Virus record (IMG/VR): IMGVR_UViG_3300050821_000645
Length of the DNA stretch: 64,000 bases
Strand: one strand, 5' to 3'
Source of the DNA: a virus
Below are positions 1,772-63,647 of the stretch, piece by piece (position 1 is the stretch's first letter; each line of letters opens with the position of its first letter). A model generated the notes under the pieces. That model was given only the letters and a program-made list of their open reading frames with translations. It searched no databases and was not told where the DNA came from. Both the position numbers and the translations under genes were made by a program.

Positions 1772-1799
1772 TTGACAGGCATGGGAAAGCGCGTATAGT
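1772..1799 (+). promoter_or_regulatory. sigma70-like promoter (TTGACA-16-TATAGT)
   Basis: TTGACA at 1772-1777 and TATAGT at 1794-1799 in the 268-bp gap upstream of gene 1828; an extended -10-like gtatgctacaat sits at 1679-1690. Confidence 0.4.
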
Positions 1800-8355: not shown

Positions 8356-8825
8356 GCTTCAAGGTCGAGCACTTCCAGGGTCACTGGTTTGACGAGGGGC
8401 TGGTGTTCGCTACGCGAGACGAAGCTATGGCCTACTCGCGACACAAAGGTCTGATTCCCAGCCGGGTGGTAGCTGCGACGCGCGAGTCTACCATGCAGGC
8501 TGGGATTTTGGCAGACCTGCCGGTTAACTATACCTTCAAGGACGGCAAGCTGGCGCCGTATAAGACGCCTACCAAGGCATCTATGAGCTGGGAGGAGTAC
8601 ATGCTGGCGGGAGGGCATGGGATGCCGCTGAAGATACCTACAGTGCCTGAGTGGCAGGTCCCTGAATCGGTGCCAGTTATGATCCCACCAAGGCCGCTGT
8701 GCGACGGATGCGGGCAAGAGATCGACCCAGACTGTTGCGGCTGTGGTGACCCACCCGAGTCACACAGCGTGTGGAGTGGGCACCCATTCATCCCCATGGG
8801 CTGCGACTGCTATCGTGCGTCATGA
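8352..8825 (+). CDS. hypothetical Cys-rich protein
   Basis: 157-aa ORF; C-terminal CDGCGQEIDPDCCGCGD cluster. Confidence 0.4.
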   Translation: MSFKVEHFQGHWFDEGLVFATRDEAMAYSRHKGLIPSRVVAATRESTMQAGILADLPVNYTFKDGKLAPYKTPTKASMSWEEYMLAGGHGMPLKIPTVPEWQVPESVPVMIPPRPLCDGCGQEIDPDCCGCGDPPESHSVWSGHPFIPMGCDCYRAS

Positions 8826-9247
8826 TTCCCGTCGTATCTCTTGGGGCGGGGCACCGTTCCCAGGACGTGTGGAGGTGCGAGCAATGCGGCGTAACGAAGC
8901 CCGCAACGTGGCGTGGGGCAGGCGGGCGCCTGTATCATCGCAGGAGCAAGTACTGCGGCGGGATCTGCCGGGGGAATGCGATGAGGGGCAAGGCGAACCC
9001 GGCGTACACGACAGGCGCACGCACAGCCCCCAGGACGGGCAGAACACGCAAGGCCATGACGACGTGGCAGGTTACCGAGATCGAGCGCTGGATGCGCTTA
9101 CGGGACCGCACAGCGCAGCAGCTGGCGGACATGATCGGTGTCACCAGGAGGGCGGTGCACAAGCGGAAGGCGGCCATTGCTGCGAGGCAGCATGCGAAAG
9201 TTGTTGACAGCTCCACTGAAGCGCCTATGATGGGCGCCAGGCAGTAA
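8822..9247 (+). CDS. putative DNA-binding protein (C-terminal HTH-like segment)
   Basis: internal Met start (MIPVVSL) overlapping upstream stop; N-terminal CEQCG...CGGIC zinc-finger-like segment and TAQQLADMIGVTRRAVHKR helix-turn-helix-like segment. Confidence 0.4.
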   Translation: MIPVVSLGAGHRSQDVWRCEQCGVTKPATWRGAGGRLYHRRSKYCGGICRGNAMRGKANPAYTTGARTAPRTGRTRKAMTTWQVTEIERWMRLRDRTAQQLADMIGVTRRAVHKRKAAIAARQHAKVVDSSTEAPMMGARQ

Positions 9248-22429: not shown

Positions 22430-22500
22430 CGGCCACGACAGGCCGCCAGCTGGGCGGTACAGCGCCTCCAAAGCGCATGACGGGTGGTTCGATTCCATCG
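22430..22500 (+). tRNA. tRNA-like element, Trp-type (anticodon CCA), noncanonical D-arm
   Basis: acceptor AGGCCGC/GCGGCCT (7 bp), G73, 3' CCA, T-arm GGTGG-TTCGATT-CCATC, anticodon loop CTCCAAA identical to canonical tRNA-Trp with U33/A37; D-arm region is only about 11-12 nt so the cloverleaf is incomplete. Confidence 0.5.
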
Positions 22501-22507
22501 CGGCCTG

Positions 22508-22583
22508 CCACTTCTATTGCGACGTAGCTCAGCAGCAGAGCAGGTGGTTCATACCCACAAGGTCGTGAGTGCAACTCTCACCG
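22508..22583 (+). ncRNA. second tRNA-like / pseudo-tRNA element (anticodon loop TTCATAC, CAT)
   Basis: TAGCTCAGC D-arm (GCTC/GAGC stem), perfect T-stem GTGAG/CTCAC, but acceptor stem pairs only with a bulge and T-loop is TGCAACT; degenerate. Confidence 0.25.
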
Positions 22584-45756: not shown

Positions 45757-46269
45757 ATGTTCGACAAACTCGTAGATCTACTTGTCGGATGTGTGGATCT
45801 ATTTCGCTTCTGGGTCATTATGGCCCCGTACGAGTCAGGTGTCAAGCTTCGGCTAGGGAAATTCGTTAGGGTACTGGATCCGGGCTGGAACTGGATGATC
45901 CCATTCGGGATAGATCAGTACGAGCACGAGCACGTTGTGCCGCGCACACATGCCCTTACGGCGCAAAGCGTAACACTCAAGGACGGTAAGCAGGTGGGCT
46001 TCGAGGCTGTTATCACGTACAAGGTGCGCGACATCAAAGTGGCACTGCTCGAAGTCGAGAACGCCGATCACGCCATAGCTGATAGCTGCTCAGGTCAGAT
46101 AGCTCACACTATCATGCAGTACACCTGGGATGCTATTGTTAGCACGGATGACTGGAGCGACCGTGTTTTAAAGGCGTGCAGGCAGCGCGGCTTTAAGTTC
46201 GGGCTAGAGATCATCAGCGTGCAGTTCGGCACGCTTGCGCTCATCAAGAACCTGCGGATACTCAAGTAA
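45757..46269 (+). CDS. SPFH / band-7 (stomatin-prohibitin-HflK/C) domain protein
   Basis: FVRVLDPGWNWMIPFGIDQ...QSVTLKDGKQVGFEAVITYKVRDIKVALLEVEN matches SPFH core (G.h.rvvepG.hfiiPf...v.tkDn..v.vdavv.yrv.d). Confidence 0.6.
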   Translation: MFDKLVDLLVGCVDLFRFWVIMAPYESGVKLRLGKFVRVLDPGWNWMIPFGIDQYEHEHVVPRTHALTAQSVTLKDGKQVGFEAVITYKVRDIKVALLEVENADHAIADSCSGQIAHTIMQYTWDAIVSTDDWSDRVLKACRQRGFKFGLEIISVQFGTLALIKNLRILK

Positions 46270-53510: not shown

Positions 53511-53987
53511 TCATTGTACCACACTATCCCGGGTGTGCTGCTTCGGTGTTAGGTGCCCGTACTTGTCCTTAATCTTGACCATGATGGCCTCCATCTCGGC
53601 GTACACCGGGTTCAGGTCGATGCCGTTGGCGGGGCGGTCGTCGACGATGTTCTTCAGGTGGTGCGTCTCGATAAGGATGTTGATGCACGCCTGAGCGTTC
53701 GCCAGGTGCGGTGTGCCGTCGCTGTCGTACCACTCACCCTCCCAGTACCGGTCGATGTGCCTGGCCAGCGCAGATACGTACACGCTGGCACGTGCGCCGC
53801 CCCCGCGCCAGTTCCAGGCGCCGTACTTGACGTTGCCAAGGAAGTGCGCAATCGCCTGGTACGCCTTTACGATGGGGCTGACGAGGTGCAGCGGCAGCTT
53901 CGTGATCCCGATGGCGTCCTTGGGGTTGGTGTCCTTAGTGACAAGCACACGATCATTCATAAGTTCCCGCTCACGAGTAAGCGTCAC
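53511..53987 (-). CDS. hypothetical protein in nucleotide-metabolism operon
   Basis: 158 aa; KYGAWNWRGGG...RH...GEWYDSDG...HH motifs; 4-nt overlap with downstream DUF4406 gene. Confidence 0.4.
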   Translation of the reverse strand: MTLTRERELMNDRVLVTKDTNPKDAIGITKLPLHLVSPIVKAYQAIAHFLGNVKYGAWNWRGGGARASVYVSALARHIDRYWEGEWYDSDGTPHLANAQACINILIETHHLKNIVDDRPANGIDLNPVYAEMEAIMVKIKDKYGHLTPKQHTRDSVVQ

Positions 53988-54430
53988 CCTATCATCTCCG
54001 TGTAGATGATGCTGAGAACGTCCTCGCGGTCGATGTCGGTCACCGGCTCGTAGGGTCCATTGTACTCAAGGAACTCGAAGTCTTGGCTCTGCAGGAGACC
54101 TACGAACGACTCCAGGCGTGCGCCGCGCGACTTGTACCAATCGGGTTGCAGGTAGATGATGCCCTGCACCTGGTCAGCAATCAGCTTTACGTCGCGCGCC
54201 AGGAAGTCGGCCCACGTCTTCTGGCCGCCGCTGGTGCCGGTACCGGGTGCGCCGTCGGCAGACTTGAGGGCGGCGCCCTTATCCTCTTCATCGTCCAACT
54301 CGGCCGGGCTGACGATATCGAACCCGCGATCACGCAGATCCTTGGCGGCGGCGAAGAACGCCGGAAAATTGAACTGCGGAATGCCGGACATCGGCCCAGC
54401 CAAATAGTAAGTTGTCATTTCGTCTCCCAT
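53984..54430 (-). CDS. DUF4406 / nucleoside 2-deoxyribosyltransferase-like protein
   Basis: N-terminus TTYYLAGPMSGIPQFNFPAFFAAAKDLRDRGFDIVSPAEL matches the DUF4406 hallmark (YLAGPMTG...N.P.F..AA..LR..G..V..PAE). Confidence 0.5.
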   Translation of the reverse strand: MGDEMTTYYLAGPMSGIPQFNFPAFFAAAKDLRDRGFDIVSPAELDDEEDKGAALKSADGAPGTGTSGGQKTWADFLARDVKLIADQVQGIIYLQPDWYKSRGARLESFVGLLQSQDFEFLEYNGPYEPVTDIDREDVLSIIYTEMIG

Positions 54431-54771
54431 GCGCGCTTACCGCGCCGTGCTTCGATCTTTTCAACATTGGCTTCCATCACGGAATCCATCTCTAGTCCGT
54501 AGTGCGATGCAATGCGGCAAGTGTAGTGTAGCACATCTCCCAGCTCCAGCAGCAGCTTGTTCCGATCCAGTGGCCCATCCCCACGGATCTCCTTCTTGAC
54601 GCGCTCCGTGATTGCGCCTGTGCCCTTGCGGATCTCTGCGATCACCTCGTCTACCTCGCCAGACAGCCCCAGCGTCATCACAGCCAGCTCCCTGACCGCA
54701 TCCTGCTCGCTGCCTACCTTACGCGTCCAGCCAGCCTCTACCCATTTCGCAAACTCATTCAATGTCATCAC
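54415..54771 (-). CDS. MazG-like nucleotide pyrophosphohydrolase
   Basis: LGLSGEVDEV...ELGDVLHYTCRIASHYGLEMDSVMEANVEKI matches MazG helices (EE.GE...E.GDvLw..). Confidence 0.7.
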   Translation of the reverse strand: MMTLNEFAKWVEAGWTRKVGSEQDAVRELAVMTLGLSGEVDEVIAEIRKGTGAITERVKKEIRGDGPLDRNKLLLELGDVLHYTCRIASHYGLEMDSVMEANVEKIEARRGKRAWETK

Positions 54772-55190
54772 ACCACTCCTGATGTCAGTAACTCGCGCTC
54801 CCAGTCGACAGTACCCAGCTCGGGCAGCAGCTCCGGGATCGCTTTGAGAGCCGCCTGATAAAAAAGTGAGAACTCGTGCTGGTCCATCTTGCCCCAGCTG
54901 ATCGACTTAGGCTTCAGCGCAACACGGTCTCCGCTCAGCCGAATCTCGTCCACGTACCCTGCCTGGATAGTGATCGCGAACCTCAGCGCTTCCTGGGATA
55001 GGTAGCGTTGCTGGTTCTGGAACACCAGGTTTAGCAAACCGAAGAATAGCCGATGATGGCGCGGGTTGCGGTCGCGGTGCATCTTAACCCTCAGAACCTC
55101 TCCGGTGCCGTAGAAGTTGAGGGCCTCCTTGGATGCGTCATCGACCGGAGCTAGGCCACCAATCGTGCGCACAAAGTAGTGGTCGCTCAT
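54768..55190 (-). CDS. hypothetical protein
   Basis: 140-aa ORF. Confidence 0.4.
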   Translation of the reverse strand: MSDHYFVRTIGGLAPVDDASKEALNFYGTGEVLRVKMHRDRNPRHHRLFFGLLNLVFQNQQRYLSQEALRFAITIQAGYVDEIRLSGDRVALKPKSISWGKMDQHEFSLFYQAALKAIPELLPELGTVDWERELLTSGVV

Positions 55191-55417: not shown

Positions 55418-55655
55418 TGGTGTCTATGAAACCATCACCGCATCGCCTGATGTACGCCGTTCCGCCGTCTACAGCGAATGACCATGTGGTCTCACCAGGC
55501 ACATCCACCAGCTTATCATCCACCCACCTGCGGCGCTGCGCTGGCTTGACGGCGCAGTAGTGCACCTGGAAATCGTGCCGGTGGCGACTCTCTATCTCTG
55601 TGCCGCAGTGTACGCACTTAGCGCTATTGCGTATGATACGCGGGAGTTCGCTCAC
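55389..55655 (-). CDS. zinc-ribbon protein
   Basis: CVHCG...C...C; GTG start overlapping NAMPT-like stop (track ORF 55389..55715). Confidence 0.35.
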   Translation of the reverse strand: MSELPRIIRNSAKCVHCGTEIESRHRHDFQVHYCAVKPAQRRRWVDDKLVDVPGETTWSFAVDGGTAYIRRCGDGFIDTSECTEQESK

Positions 55656-57145
55656 CGCCGCAGCCTTCCACGGATGTCTGCCAGCGTGTGCTTCTTCTTG
55701 AACTTGCCGTTGCACCAGACCTCCTCCAGGAGGTTGCCGGTCATCTGGTCTGAATCTTTGCGCAGGCCATCGATCAGGTGCAGCTTCCCAGGGGCGTCGA
55801 CGAACTCGGCCACAGCAAGCCGTCCACGGGCGCTGCGCTTGACCCCGTCATCTGTCACCGGGTCCTTGAATAGCTCGTGCTCTACGCCGTTTACCTGCGC
55901 CCAGGTAGCCTTCATCGCGAACCCAAAGGTATCCCGGGTGACGTACTGGTAGTTGTAGCTACCCACACCGAATACCACGTTCGTGGACGCGAATCCCTTG
56001 GCCTTTAGCCGCTCGCAGATCTGCGCCGCCCGGTCGCGGTTAATGCTGTCCCCGTAAATCGCGCCGATGTGCTGATCCAGGACTTTGTACCCAGCCTCAT
56101 TAACGGTGCCGCCGAAGATGTTCCACAGGGTCTCGACAACCCCCGCGTACCGGGCGTCGCGCTCCGGCCGAAAGTCGGCTGTCATGATCTCCGGCTTCTC
56201 GGTGCCGCACAGGATGTCGACCGGGTCTCCGCTGTCCGGCCTTATCACAAGCTTACCATTGCGCGCCAGAATACGATACTTGAGCTGCGGCAGGATGTAC
56301 GCCAGCACCTTCCACAGGTCCCAGGTGTCGCTGACCACGCTCAGGATTCCTGACGGGTACACGTCGAGCAGCCGCTCGAAAGTAGCTAGCTCTCCATCCT
56401 GACCACCCGCGCACATAACGCTGTGCTCGGTAGCGGCTACGCTACCACCGAGACCAGGTTGCCCATAGTAATACCGCTCAAGTAGCTGTATTGCTGGTAC
56501 GGTGTCGGTGCCGGTGAAGCTGAGCAGATGTCCTGCTCCACTGAGAGCCGCATCCTCTGGGCCAGACATGCCCCGAAAGCTGAAGTCGTGGCCCTGCCAA
56601 TTGATGAAGCCAGGATCGCCTCCAGTTCGCTGAGCATATAACTCAAGGGTCTTGCGGAAAGCGTGAGCTGTTGTTGCGCTTGTGCAGGCTTTCCAGAGGA
56701 CGTTGGAGAGGATGGTCTCGAAGTAGTTGGTAACCCAGAAGAACTCAGGAATTGTGTTCTCCACTGTGAACATAGGCACCCGGAGAGGGACGCGAGTTCC
56801 TTCTGGGAGAGCCTTAAATCGCAGTGGGATATATCCCAGGTCATGGAGATCTGCGATGTGCTGGGTGCCGATATTGTTTGGCCCGAGACCGGAGTCGAGC
56901 ATACGCTGGTATCGCTTACAAACGGCCCCTCGCTGCTTTCCGAAGAAAGTCTCGTTAGCCAGCTCTTGGAAATAGGCTGCGAGAAAATATTGCAGCCCGA
57001 AGAACACAACCTCATTAACGCCTGGTACTCGGCTCGCCCTAGGGGTGAAGTTGGAGTAGACATACTCTGTTCCTTGGGGGTACTGACGACGATGGTCAGC
57101 CTTGTAAAAGTCGAACAGCGAAATAAGGTCAAACATTTTCAGCAT
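55652..57145 (-). CDS. NAMPT-family phosphoribosyltransferase (NadV-like; candidate Namat of NARP1)
   Basis: 497 aa; N-terminus MFDLISLFDFYKADHRRQYPQGTEYVYSNFTPR matches the NAMPT signature (TDSYK.TH..QYP..T..VYSYFE.R). Confidence 0.8.
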   Translation of the reverse strand: MLKMFDLISLFDFYKADHRRQYPQGTEYVYSNFTPRASRVPGVNEVVFFGLQYFLAAYFQELANETFFGKQRGAVCKRYQRMLDSGLGPNNIGTQHIADLHDLGYIPLRFKALPEGTRVPLRVPMFTVENTIPEFFWVTNYFETILSNVLWKACTSATTAHAFRKTLELYAQRTGGDPGFINWQGHDFSFRGMSGPEDAALSGAGHLLSFTGTDTVPAIQLLERYYYGQPGLGGSVAATEHSVMCAGGQDGELATFERLLDVYPSGILSVVSDTWDLWKVLAYILPQLKYRILARNGKLVIRPDSGDPVDILCGTEKPEIMTADFRPERDARYAGVVETLWNIFGGTVNEAGYKVLDQHIGAIYGDSINRDRAAQICERLKAKGFASTNVVFGVGSYNYQYVTRDTFGFAMKATWAQVNGVEHELFKDPVTDDGVKRSARGRLAVAEFVDAPGKLHLIDGLRKDSDQMTGNLLEEVWCNGKFKKKHTLADIRGRLRR

Positions 57146-57998
57146 CCTTCAGTATCTTATCGATCACGGGCTGCAATGATACCACATACAGTCTATTGGG
57201 GTCATGCACGGTGCCGGTGATATCATTACGCTGCCAGCTGTCGGTGGTCATGATTAGCTCATACTTGGGGTGTATCGCATTCAGGCCCTTCGAGAAGATG
57301 CCGTGCGATACCCACAGAGCCAGCTCGCTGTCCTTAGCGTATGGATCCTTCACGAACTCCTCAGCCAGCAGGTTGAATGTGCCGCCGCCGTCGCAGATGT
57401 CATCTATGACCACATACGATCCAGGTCCCGGTAATGGTGGCATCTTAAAGCCGGTGAACTTACCGGTGGCGAAGTCTCGTGTCTTCTCGCACACGATCAC
57501 CGGGTTACGGATCTGTGCGGCATCGGCCGTATCCTGCGCCCGTCCGATAGCCCCATGGTCGGGTGCGATGATGTACGCGTCGCCTGGCGCTGGTGATGGA
57601 TCAATCACCAGATCGCGAGGCATGAAGTTGCGCTTGATACGCAGCCCGGCGAAGTGCACCGATGAATGTAAGTCGAAGGTGTATAAGTTGTTCACGTATT
57701 GCCCGAGCATGCGCCCGATCATCTCTCGCGTGACCGGTGTACGGTAGTCGGTGCGGTCCTGACGGGCCCCGGGGAAGTACGGGCAGAACAACCACACCTT
57801 GCGGTTCTTCGTGTGACCCTGGTAGTACAGCGCATTCAGTACGCACATAGCCAGGCCGACGTCGTTCCAGGTGCGCGGCTTGAGAAACAGCAGAGCATCC
57901 CCGAAGTTCTCTGGGATGCGTGCGTGCGGCTCGCCTCCCGGAAAGAAAAAAGTCTCAATGCCGCTGGCTGCGTAGTTGTCGCTGTCGATGACCTTCAT
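57129..57998 (-). CDS. ribose-phosphate pyrophosphokinase (Prs) homologue (candidate Adps of NARP1)
   Basis: 289 aa; PRTase loop YVVIDDICDGGGTF; overlaps NAMPT-like gene by 17 nt. Confidence 0.75.
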   Translation of the reverse strand: MKVIDSDNYAASGIETFFFPGGEPHARIPENFGDALLFLKPRTWNDVGLAMCVLNALYYQGHTKNRKVWLFCPYFPGARQDRTDYRTPVTREMIGRMLGQYVNNLYTFDLHSSVHFAGLRIKRNFMPRDLVIDPSPAPGDAYIIAPDHGAIGRAQDTADAAQIRNPVIVCEKTRDFATGKFTGFKMPPLPGPGSYVVIDDICDGGGTFNLLAEEFVKDPYAKDSELALWVSHGIFSKGLNAIHPKYELIMTTDSWQRNDITGTVHDPNRLYVVSLQPVIDKILKDAENV

Positions 57999-59481: not shown

Positions 59482-60141
59482 TTAGAAGGGGATATCGTCA
59501 TCAAAGTCCTGCGCCTGGTTGACGTTCTCCGCAGCCTTCTGCGCGTCGACCTTCTTGATGCGGACCTCGACCTTCTTCTGCAGCCACTCCGGGAGCTTCT
59601 CCCATGCCGCCTGGTCGTGACTGTCCGGGCTGTACGCAACCAAGCCATTGGGACCTGTCGGCTTGCCCAGTGCTGGGTTGGCGGTTATCTTGTCCTTCTG
59701 CTCCTGGATGAGCCCGAACGCGCCCTGGATCTTCGCCCGCACCTTGCCGTCGCGTCCCTCTTCGTGGACGATGGAGAGCTGACACAGCTTACCCAGGATG
59801 GAGGTGACCTCGAATGCCTCTTCCTCTTCCTTGGTGAACGGACGACCGCGCCAGCCTTCGAGGAAGGGACGGAAGTTGCTCTTCTCGCTGATCGAGAGCG
59901 TGAAGAACGTGCCGATGGTTGAGGACCCCTCATGGGTCTGACCATTCTTCTCCCACTTCACTTTCACACCCGGGATTTCGAACCTGATGTAGATCTGGTC
60001 CTTGTCAGGGTACTTCGGGTTGCCGGACGGCTGAACCCCGAGATGCACGATCTCCGTGCAAATCGCCATATGCACACCAGCTGGGACCTGCTCGAAATCC
60101 TTCCCGCCCTTCGCTGATGCCTTGATACTTGTGAACGCCAT
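59482..60141 (-). CDS. single-stranded DNA-binding protein (phage SSB-like)
   Basis: 219 aa ending in acidic tail QDFDDDIPF, the canonical SSB C-terminal partner-binding tip. Confidence 0.65.
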   Translation of the reverse strand: MAFTSIKASAKGGKDFEQVPAGVHMAICTEIVHLGVQPSGNPKYPDKDQIYIRFEIPGVKVKWEKNGQTHEGSSTIGTFFTLSISEKSNFRPFLEGWRGRPFTKEEEEAFEVTSILGKLCQLSIVHEEGRDGKVRAKIQGAFGLIQEQKDKITANPALGKPTGPNGLVAYSPDSHDQAAWEKLPEWLQKKVEVRIKKVDAQKAAENVNQAQDFDDDIPF

Positions 60142-60494: not shown

Positions 60495-61133
60495 CTAGCT
60501 CTCCAGTGGGTCTGTTTGGTGGTCATCATTCTGGAATGCACCCACCGCGTTCCATCTGCGCCGGATGCCATCGATGCTGCGTGCCGTCAGGCTGATGGTG
60601 CCGTATTGCAGTTCCATGTCGCGCGCCAGTTCCTCGCGCTTCGCCCGCTCCCTCTCCTTGGCCCAGCTGCGCTCCTCCGTGGTGTACGTGGTCAGCACCC
60701 CACCGAAGCCCTTGATAGCGACATACCGTCCCGTGGGGTCAGCGGCACCAAACACCATCGGCGATGGCAGTTTCTCGTACTCCTCGAACTCGTCGTCGTT
60801 CTCGACGGCGGCGCTATCCGGGTCGACGTAACCCTTCACATCCAGCCGGTCGGCGAACATCTGCGCCATGCGCACGCCCTTCGCGAAATCCTTGTGCACG
60901 AGCACCATGTACCGGTACACCAAGCAGTCGTCCTGGAAGGTGACATCGAGCACTGGCGCGAACGGCGCGACCATGTACTCGTAGTCGCCCAGGTCATGCA
61001 TGTGCTCACGGATGTACGCGAACGCGGCCTGCTCCAGCTTGCTACACCGGAAGAAGCGCTGCGCGGCGATGAGGTAGTCGCTGTAGTTGGTGCCCTCGTA
61101 GTTCGCCATCTCTCGCCATGGGGTCAGTTTCAT
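60495..61133 (-). CDS. hypothetical protein
   Basis: 212-aa ORF with GGAGATATCTATG RBS/start. Confidence 0.45.
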   Translation of the reverse strand: MKLTPWREMANYEGTNYSDYLIAAQRFFRCSKLEQAAFAYIREHMHDLGDYEYMVAPFAPVLDVTFQDDCLVYRYMVLVHKDFAKGVRMAQMFADRLDVKGYVDPDSAAVENDDEFEEYEKLPSPMVFGAADPTGRYVAIKGFGGVLTTYTTEERSWAKERERAKREELARDMELQYGTISLTARSIDGIRRRWNAVGAFQNDDHQTDPLES

Positions 61134-61142
61134 AGATATCTC

Positions 61143-61370
61143 CTAGCAGCTCATCATGATGTGCACGTTGTCGGCGCACTCGGCGCACGTAACGCGGATC
61201 TGGGCACCGGCCTGCGCCGGGTCATCGGCGGCGCGCAGCCTCCACGGCGACCTGATGCCGGTCGGGTTGGCGCGGTTGGCGAAGTCCTCGGCCTGGGCGT
61301 CGGTCCATTCGCTGGGGACGCACACCTGCATATCGATCAGGCCGCGCCGGGTTATCATGGCTTCGCTCAT
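61143..61370 (-). CDS. hypothetical protein
   Basis: 76 aa from internal Met MSEAMITRRG of track ORF 61143..61499. Confidence 0.35.
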   Translation of the reverse strand: MSEAMITRRGLIDMQVCVPSEWTDAQAEDFANRANPTGIRSPWRLRAADDPAQAGAQIRVTCAECADNVHIMMSC

Positions 61371-61549
61371 AGCGGCAGCACCTTGGCCTTGACCGCGCCG
61401 AAGCGCACCATCGCCCGCTGGCTCTTGTTGGCTGCTGCCTTGGGCCCCAGGCTGGCGGCAAGCTGCAGGGGGTTGATGGTCAGCTCGACCGTTCGCCATG
61501 TGCCGTTGATGCGGATCACATGGTTGGTTGTTACCTTTGTCTCACTCAT
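61367..61549 (-). CDS. hypothetical protein (first gene of the minus-strand operon)
   Basis: MSETKVTTNHVIRINGTW...; GGAGAGTGATATG RBS/start context. Confidence 0.4.
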   Translation of the reverse strand: MSETKVTTNHVIRINGTWRTVELTINPLQLAASLGPKAAANKSQRAMVRFGAVKAKVLPL

Positions 61550-61616
61550 ATCACTCTCCGTTGGTTGTTCGACGGGCGCTATAGTTTCACGTTTTTTCAG
61601 TGCTGTCAACAAATAT

Positions 61617-61637
61617 AATCGTGTTAAATTTCACAAG
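61617..61637 (+). repeat. 21-bp direct repeat copy 1 (AATCGTGTTAAATTTCACAAG), putative operator/iteron
   Basis: exact second copy at 61772-61792; internal imperfect dyad GTG-N8-CAC around AAATTT. Confidence 0.6.
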
Positions 61638-61660
61638 CTATTTGACAGATTAAAATTTGG
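61632..61660 (+). promoter_or_regulatory. sigma70 consensus-like promoter (TTGACA-17-TATACT) reading rightwards
   Basis: TTGACA 61632-61637, 17-nt spacer, TATACT 61655-61660, in AT-rich divergent intergenic region. Confidence 0.5.
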
Positions 61661-61771
61661 CGGCTATACTTTTTGGGTGGGGGGTGGGGGTCATAGTCTT
61701 AGTCTGCTTCCCAAAGGGGGATACCCCTGTGTCTTTTGCCTTTACTGCCTTCCCTGTCAAATTTTGTGCGA

Positions 61772-61792
61772 AATCGTGTTAAATTTCACAAG
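61772..61792 (+). repeat. 21-bp direct repeat copy 2 (AATCGTGTTAAATTTCACAAG)
   Basis: identical to 61617-61637; ends 3 bp before ATG of gene 61795. Confidence 0.6.
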
Positions 61793-61794
61793 AA

Positions 61795-62055
61795 ATGGTA
61801 ATTGCTGTAGATGGGTGTGATATCCTTTGCGGCATGGATGAGAGTGACAAGCAACACGTCGGCGAGGCGCTGCGGCGCATCTGGGCTGTGCACCGGGCTA
61901 AGTACGGCACAGACGTATTCAACGGCATGTGGGCTGGCCTGCAGGGCATGAGCAGGGCAGACTTCGACAGGGCGCTGGTGCACGTGGAGAGGTACTCCAA
62001 GTGGCCCCCGACGCCTGCCACGTTCTGGGCGGCTCTGAAGCAAGGATGGCTGTGA
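61795..62055 (+). CDS. hypothetical protein (first gene of rightward replication operon)
   Basis: 86-aa ORF. Confidence 0.4.
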   Translation: MVIAVDGCDILCGMDESDKQHVGEALRRIWAVHRAKYGTDVFNGMWAGLQGMSRADFDRALVHVERYSKWPPTPATFWAALKQGWL

Positions 62056-62103
62056 GTAGCATTGAGGGGTTGGAGCGTGCCTTGGCATACCTGAGGGCTG
62101 CAT

Positions 62104-62541
62104 ATGCAAATTGACGAGCTACTGACGCGCTTCGATAAGATCAAAAAGTCGGGGCCTAACAAGTGGATTGCCCGCTGCCCGGCGCACGAGGACCGCAGCC
62201 CCTCCTTAGCCATCAAGGAGGGCGACGACGGCGTGGTATTGCTGCACTGCTTCGCGGGGTGCAGCGTCGACGATGTCTGCGGCGCCATAGGTATCAGCCT
62301 GATGGACCTGTTCCCGCCGACCGACAAGCGGGAATGGTCGGGTGACAAGCCGATCAAGTTCGGGACCGTGAAGTTCTCGGCAATCGATGCGTTGCGTTGC
62401 CTGTCGAGCGAGGGCAGCTTACTGGCGGTTGTCGCCGCCGACATGGCCGAAGGCAGGGTGCTGGGCCCAGACCTCACAGAGAGGCTGTACGTCGCCTGCG
62501 AGCGAATAGCGACCGCCCTGGACTACGTGGAGAACACATGA
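62104..62541 (+). CDS. primase zinc-binding domain protein (CHC2-type zinc finger)
   Basis: WIARCPAHEDRSPSLAIKEGDDGVVLLHCFAGC matches CHC2 primase zinc finger (CPFH.D..PS....); only 145 aa, no TOPRIM domain. Confidence 0.55.
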   Translation: MQIDELLTRFDKIKKSGPNKWIARCPAHEDRSPSLAIKEGDDGVVLLHCFAGCSVDDVCGAIGISLMDLFPPTDKREWSGDKPIKFGTVKFSAIDALRCLSSEGSLLAVVAADMAEGRVLGPDLTERLYVACERIATALDYVENT

Positions 62542-63647
62542 CCGACCAGCTGAAGATGGCTGGCATCAGCGTTGGCGGACCGGCGAAGAAGCACCTGGCA
62601 GAGATCGAGGCATCGCAGCGCGCCATAGATGCGGTCGCGGCGGCACGTCGGCACGGCAAGATATTCGTTACCACGCAGGCCGCCGGGGCGAACGACAGCC
62701 CCGAGAAGATCTTGTTCGACGCAGGCAAGCAAACACCGAAGGAGATGATCGATGCTTATTCAGCTAGACGGGCGCATTACGACACTGTGCCACTGGACGT
62801 GGAGGGCAATGTTGTACGTCTCTACAAGGGGCAGTGGACGATTTTCTCGGGATATACAGGGACCGGCAAGACGACGTTTCTTCGTCAGATGGTCTGCCAC
62901 CTTCTCAAGGCAGGCAAGTCAGTATTCGTGGCTACTCTCGAAGCGGATCCCGAGGATTACCTCGTGGAGCTGGCGTCGACCGCTGCCGGTGTCGAAATGG
63001 TGTCAGAGACCCAGCTCGCGGCGTTTCTCGCGGCCTTTGGCGAGCAGATCAAGCTCTGGGGCATCGTGGGAGTTGCGGATCACCGCAAGATCCTGGCGAC
63101 CGTACGTGACCTCGCAAAGCAAGAGGGCGGCCTGGATTACGCTGTTCTAGACAGCCTGATGATGCTCGACATCGAGGAGGACGACATCGACGAGCAGCGC
63201 AAGTTCGCTGGCCTGCTCACAGCCTCCGCGATCACCACCGGGGTGCACATCATACTCGTCGCGCATCCGAAGAAGCCCATGGATGCTGAGGCGCCACCGA
63301 CCGTGCACAACGTCAGCGGCAGCTCGAAGCTGGTGAACCTTGCATTCAACGTGCTCTTCATTCGTCGTGGGCCGCCGGTCGCCGGACAGGACCATAGTAT
63401 CACGCAGATGCAGCTGCATATCCTCAAGCAACGCACGCGTGGCCTGGTGGGCGAGATCACGGGCTGCTTCTACCGGCACCACAACCAGTTCCACCTGGAC
63501 GCATACGCGCAGCAGCCGACGTTTTACATGCTGGCCGAGCATTACCCGGCCAGTGGGCTGACAGAGGACATCCCAGAGCACATACTCAACCGGAATGCGT
63601 TCACCGTGGACCGGGAGACCAGCACCTCGGCGCCCTGGGAAATCTAG
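62538..63647 (+). CDS. DnaB/T7 gp4-like replicative helicase (RecA-fold)
   Basis: Walker A SGYTGTGKTTFL, Walker B-like VLDSLMML, HIILVAHPKK; ATGA coupling to the zinc-finger gene. Confidence 0.65.
   Translation: MTDQLKMAGISVGGPAKKHLAEIEASQRAIDAVAAARRHGKIFVTTQAAGANDSPEKILFDAGKQTPKEMIDAYSARRAHYDTVPLDVEGNVVRLYKGQWTIFSGYTGTGKTTFLRQMVCHLLKAGKSVFVATLEADPEDYLVELASTAAGVEMVSETQLAAFLAAFGEQIKLWGIVGVADHRKILATVRDLAKQEGGLDYAVLDSLMMLDIEEDDIDEQRKFAGLLTASAITTGVHIILVAHPKKPMDAEAPPTVHNVSGSSKLVNLAFNVLFIRRGPPVAGQDHSITQMQLHILKQRTRGLVGEITGCFYRHHNQFHLDAYAQQPTFYMLAEHYPASGLTEDIPEHILNRNAFTVDRETSTSAPWEI

Follow-up and report, generated by a model that had tools for sequence, protein, structure and literature searches.

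A divergent control region with paired putative operators upstream of the replication genes of an uncultured soil phage

The IMG/VR virus record IMGVR_UViG_3300050821_000645 provided a stretch of 64,000 nucleotides (nt), analyzed at its full length and called the window here, that represents the bulk of an uncultured tailed phage genome, with large terminase, portal, capsid, SU10-type adaptor, tail fibre and endolysin-like genes. This phage, W, is a lytic-type soil phage belonging to a family of uncultured soil phages of ~65–68 kb, and neither an integrase nor a CI-like repressor was seen in its genome. Its genes form two arms. The leftward arm runs from 61.55 kb down to ~51.5 kb and begins with an operon encoding small proteins without known function, a protein resembling single-stranded DNA-binding protein (SSB), an HNH protein, a 3′–5′ exonuclease, DUF1367, MazG, a NAMPT-like/PRPP-synthetase-like pair and a dATP/dGTP diphosphohydrolase. 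The rightward arm runs from ~61.8 kb past the end of the window and on from its start to ~51.5 kb, and opens with replication genes. Here, we describe the spacer between the two arms, which carries a strong predicted promoter and two copies of a 21-bp repeat, AATCGTGTTAAATTTCACAAG. We consider it about an even bet (probability ~0.5) that, judged from sequence, the repeats are paired operators for a putative dimeric DNA-binding protein controlling rightward transcription of the replication genes.

Layout of the control region

A reading made from the sequence alone (the sequence-only reading) had described an AT-rich divergent control region at 61550-61800 containing a promoter, the paired repeats, flanking heptamers, a G-tract and a hairpin. 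All of these elements were present in that interval, with small errors in their coordinates. The spacer is indeed AT-rich, with a GC content of 0.424 over 61550-61794 compared with 0.596 for the window, and no 245-nt stretch anywhere in the window has a lower GC content than the one beginning at 61580 (GC 0.40). The principal features are as follows.

61617-61637, no strand assigned: op1, repeat copy 1; 22-bp dyad at 61618-61639, centre 61628.5, between the -35 elements of P_L and P_R1
61772-61792, no strand assigned: op2, repeat copy 2; dyad centre 61783.5, upstream of P_R2
61642-61670, plus strand: predicted promoter P_R1, TTGACA-17-TATACT; 11 of 12 consensus positions, predicted start ~61676-61678
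61816-61836, plus strand: predicted promoter P_R2, TGTGaTATCCT, with the -10 at 61821-61826 followed by 7 nt and ATG 61834; extended -10, leaderless mRNA
61581-61609, minus strand: candidate promoter P_L, with -35 TTGACA (61609..61604), a 17-nt spacer and an extended -10, TGaAACTAT (61589..61581)
61834-63647, plus strand: replication genes, comprising a protein of 73 amino acids (aa) at 61834-62055, a CHC2 zinc-ribbon primase-like protein at 62104-62541 and a DnaB-like helicase at 62538-63647

A helicase search recovered a family of related metagenomic phages, mainly from soil; their loci are numbered L001 onward, and the homologous intergenic region was read in nine distinct relatives of W. 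The closest to W overall is L001, in which the helicase is 92% and the 73-aa protein 98.6% identical, while the helicase of L002 is 87% identical. Among GenBank phages, the best helicase protein match was 30% identical, and the control region had no DNA match there in either near or distant mode. IMG/VR contained no helicase relative, no exact 21-mer and no G-tract block. Sequence identical to W was found in assemblies from at least two sequencing runs (L106 and L107), with the control region in the same orientation in two samples, and these assemblies supply 3.9 kb absent from the window.

The two 21-mers are exact copies 155 bp apart, as had been described. A search for further copies, which the sequence-only reading had proposed, showed that the genome holds exactly two: no third copy was present in the window even at three mismatches (0 in 100 shuffles), nor in the 3.9 kb of the genome outside the window (L106). 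The repeat had been credited with an internal GTG-N8-CAC dyad; its symmetry holds, but the register TGT-N8-ACA fits better, centred on AAA/TTT, with 12 of 14 positions symmetric in W. The full unit is a 22-bp dyad consisting of the half-site TTCGTGTKAAA and its counterpart TTTMACACGAA. An additional half-site-like sequence, TGTGCGAAA, lies immediately to the left of op2 at 61766-61774. A third GTG-N8-CAC at 61844-61857 was dismissed, as it falls within coding sequence and is not kept in L002.

P_R1 is, from its sequence, a strong near-consensus predicted sigma-70 promoter. The hexamers and spacing had been read correctly, although the promoter lies at 61642-61670 rather than 61632-61660. It is the only such site in 60500-62800 and one of five sites scoring at least 10/12 in the whole window. 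Two further near-consensus sigma-70 promoters, TTGACA-16-TATAGT (1772-1799, plus strand) and TTGACA-16-TATGAT (9204-9231, plus strand), lie just ahead of the genes at 1828 and 9261, with no operator-like dyad close to either promoter.

The first rightward gene had been assigned the ATG at 61795. This codon does lie two bases past op2, but it is probably not the true start: the homology of the 73-aa protein begins at Met 61834 in nine relatives, which align from that ATG, and the motif TGTGnTAnnnT-N6-7-ATG is conserved in W, L001-L004, L086/L008, L087, L104 and L105. We therefore regard the leaderless ATG 61834 as the probable start, and the annotated ATG 61795 as probably wrong. Since P_R2 is conserved in nine relatives, op2 stands upstream of a real promoter. 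The same motif also precedes the ATGs at 8822 (an open reading frame (ORF) resembling helix-turn-helix (HTH) proteins), 20042 and 63666.

CTGTCAA occurs at 61603-61609 and 61754-61760, 7 and 11 nt ahead of the repeats, with the inverted TTGACAG at 61642-61648. The proposal that the two CTGTCAA copies act as leftward -35 hexamers fared differently at the two positions. The left one (61609..61604) is plausible as the -35 of P_L and is conserved in W, L001, L002, L087, L105 and L003, which include loci without the repeats, whereas the right one (61760..61755) lacks a -10 partner. The -10 assignment of P_L itself is weak, and P_L scored under the promoter-scan threshold.

A cassette shared with one relative

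Among the nine relatives read, only L002 carries the same arrangement, a cassette of ~225 bp (~61611-61833). The cassette is absent from L001, L003, L004, L086, L087, L104 and L105, which have unrelated GC-rich sequence in its place. In L001, the left flank matches that of W as far as the bottom-strand TTGACA and then gives way to ~300 nt of unrelated GC-rich sequence; L003, L004, L086/L008, L087, L104 and L105 are alike in this respect. Because seven relatives with the same replication genes do without it, the cassette is a module and no fixture of those genes; by sequence comparison, it is a swappable, self-contained control module. The early control region is thus exchanged as a cassette in this family, as the genes of W are closest to those of L001 while the cassette is common only to W and L002. 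Identity between W and L002 was highly uneven along the cassette.

Promoter spacer: 9/17
Variable block of 36 nt: 18/36
-10 through G-tract: 30/30
CU tract: 30/31
-35 hexamer: identical
17-nt repeat core: no difference among the four copies

With neutral positions ~50% identical, close to saturation, the conserved blocks are under selection and not merely young. Both P_R1 hexamers are identical in L002 and the 17-nt length of the spacer is kept, although only 9/17 of its positions match. Likewise, the 17-nt core of the repeat is identical in 4/4 copies from the two phages. In L002, op2 is a 22-bp palindrome, TTCGTGTGAAA followed by TTTAACACGAA, that matches at 10/11 positions per half. The orientation of this copy differs between the two phages, inverted in L002 but direct in W, which fits a symmetric dimer for which orientation is immaterial. 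No 3-nt periodicity is seen where W and L002 differ (9, 6 and 4 differences), indicating that the cassette is non-coding; a candidate micro-ORF (a top-strand GWGVGV... peptide or a bottom-strand 36-aa ORF) was rejected on this ground, and its start codon is not conserved while the frame runs on in L002.

These comparisons bear on the possibility that the repeat is a functionless recent local duplication. A tandem half-site-like duplication does sit beside op2 in W, and only two cassettes are known. However, L002 keeps two perfect copies in the other relative orientation, against neutral positions that are ~50% identical, so this explanation is already contradicted and we give it almost no credence.

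Elsewhere, matches to the repeat core were scattered. The 17-nt core was found in IMG/VR as four unrelated singletons, one of them within a structural-gene ORF, and was treated as occurring by chance; the 18-nt core gave 10 scattered singletons in unrelated low-GC taxa among 185,579 GTDB species genomes, about the chance level. Three of the four IMG/VR contigs with the 17-nt core (L088:1281-1297, L089:2862-2878 and L091:4283-4299) match the 21-mer over 20 nt. This 20-nt extension exceeds the chance expectation (rough p ~5e-4), and the contexts look unrelated.

At the position of the cassette, the relatives that lack it carry a GC-rich non-coding element of 200-450 nt (L003:4880-5170, L104:960-1225, L001:4965-5230, L105:20-300 and L004:3480-3730). 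The L003 and L104 elements align over ~270 nt, and their consensus fold has 63 pairs, 15 of which are kept through two-sided changes. No Rfam match was found for the element, and its modelled fold suggests a possible structured phage RNA that has yet to be described. These relatives also share a conserved (G/T)ATACCACA box, placed 17-19 nt ahead of the TGTG of the leaderless promoter, or 39 nt ahead of it in L001 (L003:5153-5162, L004:3724-3733, L087:2343-2352, L104:1216-1225, L105:298-307 and L001:5225-5234). This box may be the site of a different regulator, replaced by op2 in W and L002.

The sequence-only reading had also raised a replication origin with the repeats as iterons. Such an origin could alternatively consist of a promoter with a non-template G-tract that seeds an R-loop primer. 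The region is the most AT-rich stretch of the window, with the primase-like and helicase genes directly downstream. With its ~20-bp direct repeat, it resembles iteron origins (lambda ori, plasmid and P1 oriR), which are likewise AT-rich and found beside replication genes. The G-tract begins where the +1 of a consensus promoter is predicted, and L002 conserves it at 100%. The cumulative GC skew, which had been suggested as origin evidence, does reach its minimum at ~61 kb, but this turn coincides with the switch of the coding strand and is therefore uninformative. Iteron origins differ from this region, which has two repeat copies in the whole genome, one of them inverted in L002, and contains no TTWTNCACA (DnaA box), WATCARNNNNTTR (IHF consensus) or GATC in 61400-61900. 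An origin tied to the replication genes should be shared along with them, yet the seven relatives with orthologous genes have no cassette, and the adjacent 73-aa protein is 98.6% identical in the repeat-less L001. An origin is thus improbable in our view, and the iteron proposal was not upheld. Overall, the region has the look of a phage control region of an ordinary, familiar kind, of which it is a new example, and not that of a replication origin.

Paired dyads upstream of two predicted tandem promoters

We then consider how the dyads are placed. Distances from dyad centre to -10 were counted by hand on the W and L002 sequences.

Dyad centre to start of the -10, P_R1: 36.5 bp in W, 36.5 bp in L002
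Dyad centre to start of the -10, P_R2: 37.5 bp in W, 37.5 bp in L002
Distance between operators: 155 bp in W, 145 bp in L002

The equality of these centre-to-(-10) distances in the two phages indicates that each site is placed relative to its own promoter, at ~-49, where it covers ~-59 to -38, immediately ahead of the -35 position. The elements themselves, the selective pattern of their conservation and this geometry are direct observations. Taken with the dyad symmetry, the core shared by four copies, the flipped copy in L002 and the common distance to the -10s, they favour the operator half of the sequence-only reading.

In the model we prefer, a putative dimeric protein, encoded by phage or host, would bind op1 and op2 and control P_R1 and P_R2 together, with op1 serving P_R1 and op2 serving P_R2, the family-wide leaderless promoter of the replication operon. 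Sites at ~-49 would lie in the zone where the alpha C-terminal domain of RNA polymerase docks. Because op1 precedes the predicted start of P_R1 and is also outside the sequence transcribed from P_L, it would act at the DNA level, and its position between the back-to-back -35 elements of P_L and P_R1 means that leftward transcription could be affected too. We infer that the likelier outcome would be repression, or shut-off, through occupancy of the upstream polymerase-contact zone, possibly aided by a pairing of two bound dimers across 145-155 bp of the kind seen at gal; activation from ~-49 would be the alternative sign of regulation.

Several known systems offer partial parallels. At the gal operators OE and OI, bound by the GalR repressosome, two matched dyads likewise leave the -35 and -10 uncovered, with one upstream, one in the transcribed leader and AT-rich DNA between them. 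The gal operators are ~114 bp apart, and repression proceeds via pairing of the two bound dimers. Here, in contrast, the separation is 145-155 bp, op2 is also upstream of a second promoter, the sequence is unrelated and no GalR/LacI-type protein was found. The lambdoid OR/OL regions, bound by Cro and CI, and the phi29 A2b/A2c/A3 region, bound by p4, share a short divergent region, strong host-type promoters and repeated dyads at which a small dimeric regulator times early genes. However, lambdoid operators overlap the hexamers, come in threes and have the regulator gene adjacent, whereas W has two sites at ~-49 and no adjacent regulator gene common to both cassettes. In phi29, the p4 sites are also upstream of promoter cores and act on polymerase contacts instead of by simple occlusion.

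A number of points weigh against the operator interpretation. No protein binding the repeats was found, and no gene is common only to W and L002 within the comparable 13 kb. Pfam scans of ~70 ORFs gave one weak HTH protein, that at 8822-9247, which had been put forward as a candidate binder; it does not co-occur with the repeats, as a homologue was on a 27,289-nt contig (the same size as that of L001, which has no operator) and none was seen on the L002 contig. Only two independent cassettes are known. The sites are clear of the -35 and -10, so that simple occlusion is not the mechanism, and ~-49 is not a classical activator position. The 10-bp difference in operator separation, one helical turn, is explicable by the tandem half-site and therefore gives no independent evidence of phasing. 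In addition, the operator model does not account for the orphan TTGACA that is conserved in the right arm of the inverted repeat. As for other candidate factors, the 60-aa and 76-aa ORFs adjacent to the cassette are absent from L002, and the 73-aa protein was rejected as the cognate factor because it is 98.6% identical in the operator-less L001. A promoter for a phage RNA polymerase was rejected as well, since no such polymerase was found (the 885-aa ORF is the portal) and the repeat has two copies only.

That no cassette-linked phage regulator was found in the comparable 13 kb counts in favour of a host protein of the CRP/FNR family, which would bind the dyads in the GTG-N8-CAC register and couple early transcription to host physiology. 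In that register, with a perfect TCACA half, CGTGT-TAAATT-TCACA matches 8/10 core positions of TGTGA-N6-TCACA. Nevertheless, the symmetry axis is shifted by 1 bp to TGT-N8-ACA, the L002 palindrome reads TGTGA-N4-TAACA, and the central AAATTT is invariant in 4/4 copies although this part varies among CRP sites. A register off the true axis combined with an invariant centre led us not to class the repeats as CRP sites. Moreover, CRP activates from -41.5, -61.5 and -72.5 and is not productive at ~-49, the position occupied here. We regard a global regulator of this family as distinctly improbable.

The orphan TTGACA (61760..61755) is accounted for by one model alone, in which the repeats are the terminal inverted repeats, and hence recombination sites, of a small mobile or invertible element: either a remnant of a miniature inverted-repeat transposable element (MITE) or insertion sequence with P_R1 pointing inward, or an inverton. 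Each arm would then combine the dyad with a TTGACA at its inner end. In L002, the inverted arms are 37 nt long and 86% complementary, 25 nt of this perfectly. They are flanked by direct GCGTGTC copies, 5 nt before the left arm and abutting the right one, and W has TGCTGT on both sides. As in invertons, hix/gix invertible promoters and MITEs, inverted repeats of 25-37 nt with internal dyads flank a promoter segment of ~105 nt. The composition is also foreign to the genome (42% GC for the cassette, 60% for the genome), and the element is polymorphic even among close relatives, L001 (helicase 92% identical) being without it.

Several points count against this model. The copies in W are direct, not inverted, and relatives provide no empty site, carrying the different 200-450-nt GC-rich element instead. 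Neither a recombinase nor a transposase was found in Pfam scans or in precomputed Pfam calls, and there is no multi-copy family, only 10 GTDB singletons for the 18-nt core and four in IMG/VR for the 17-nt core. The 5-nt offset of the left GCGTGTC means that there is no clean target-site duplication. A mobile origin leaves the fixed distance from site to -10 unexplained, and the orientation was identical in assemblies from two samples. On balance, we find this origin of the repeats unlikely. In its invertible version, flipping the ~105-nt segment, 61649-61753 in W and 4679-4785 in L002, would rebuild TTGACA-17-TATACT pointing leftward, with a junction such as AAGCTATTTGACAGGGAAGGCAG. That W, a lytic phage, might carry a working mobile or invertible promoter element, with arms made of a recombinase-type dyad and a -35 and a flip that retargets the promoter to the leftward operon, strikes us as highly improbable. 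If true, the flip would move the promoter from the replication operon to the SSB, exonuclease, nucleotide-metabolism and NAD-salvage genes.

Leader elements, neighbouring genes and significance

Downstream of P_R1 and at the start of the leftward operon, the following additional features were recorded.

61675-61690, plus strand: G-tract, forming the 5′ end of the predicted P_R1 mRNA; pairing with the CU tract is predicted
61715-61728, plus strand: small hairpin followed by a U-rich run (to ~61739); resembles a weak terminator or attenuator
61731-61761, plus strand: CU-rich tract, 30/31 identical to L002, ending in CTGTCAA (61754-61760), the bottom-strand orphan TTGACAG
61547-61559, minus strand: first leftward gene start, with ATG 61549..61547 and Shine-Dalgarno GGAGAG 61559..61554
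61558-61575, minus strand: hairpin in the leader of the leftward mRNA, CCGTTG..CGACGG, whose 3′ arm enters the Shine-Dalgarno sequence and which may act there

The G-tract GGGTGGGGGGTGGGGG and the hairpin AGGGG-GATA-CCCCT had both been noticed before, and only their coordinates required correction, to those listed. The hairpin has a 5-bp stem and the tail GTGTCTTTTG; the terminator scan returned one such site, compared with 2.0 expected in shuffles. Its stem is kept in L002 within the 50%-identical block, where two pairs are changed on both sides. Within the inverted repeat, the CU tract makes up the inner end of the right-hand arm. Folds of the leader had z-scores of -0.6 to -1.5, no better than shuffled sequence, which leaves a long helix between the G-tract and the CU tract unproven. 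Neither the window region nor any of six related loci had a match in Rfam. The G-tract, the hairpin and the CU tract are all conserved in the leader, and their sequences are compatible with a 5′ stem, an attenuator or a Rho-entry site.

On the leftward side, the block CATATCACTCTCCGTTG at the gene start is identical in L001 and L002, and the stem in the leader is retained with different sequence in L002 and L087 (both CCGTT..AACGG). Farther along the leftward operon, a 219-aa protein at 59482-60141 (minus strand) belongs to phrog_862, which has no assigned function. Its C-terminus, DFDDDIPF, resembles the C-terminal tip of bacterial SSB, which makes the protein the probable SSB of the phage. 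Its identity is 89% to the L002 protein and only 56% to that of L001, the reverse of the neighbouring genes, a sign of mosaicism. At 55652-57998 (minus strand), a NAMPT/NAPRTase-like protein (497 aa) overlaps a PRPP-synthetase-like protein (289 aa), close to MazG, DUF4406, DUF1367 and a dATP/dGTP diphosphohydrolase domain (53511-55190). We take this pair to resemble the two-enzyme pathway by which phages reconstitute NAD+ and so counter NAD-depleting defence systems. The structural region contains a single tRNA-Trp (CCA) gene, at 22440-22510 (plus strand). The 3.9 kb between the window end and start (L106:11464-15400) encodes an RNA ligase, a Band_7/SPFH protein and several small ORFs; a second SPFH protein is encoded in the window at 45757-46269.

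What makes this control region worth recording is the placement of sites at ~-49 of two tandem promoters, the exchange of the region as a cassette and the leaderless downstream promoter. If the operator interpretation is true, the 22-bp sequence TTCGTGTKAAATTTMACACGAA would serve as bait to fish out the early-gene regulator of this phage family. These findings are useful for the annotation and engineering of these phages and leave the general picture of phage regulation unchanged.

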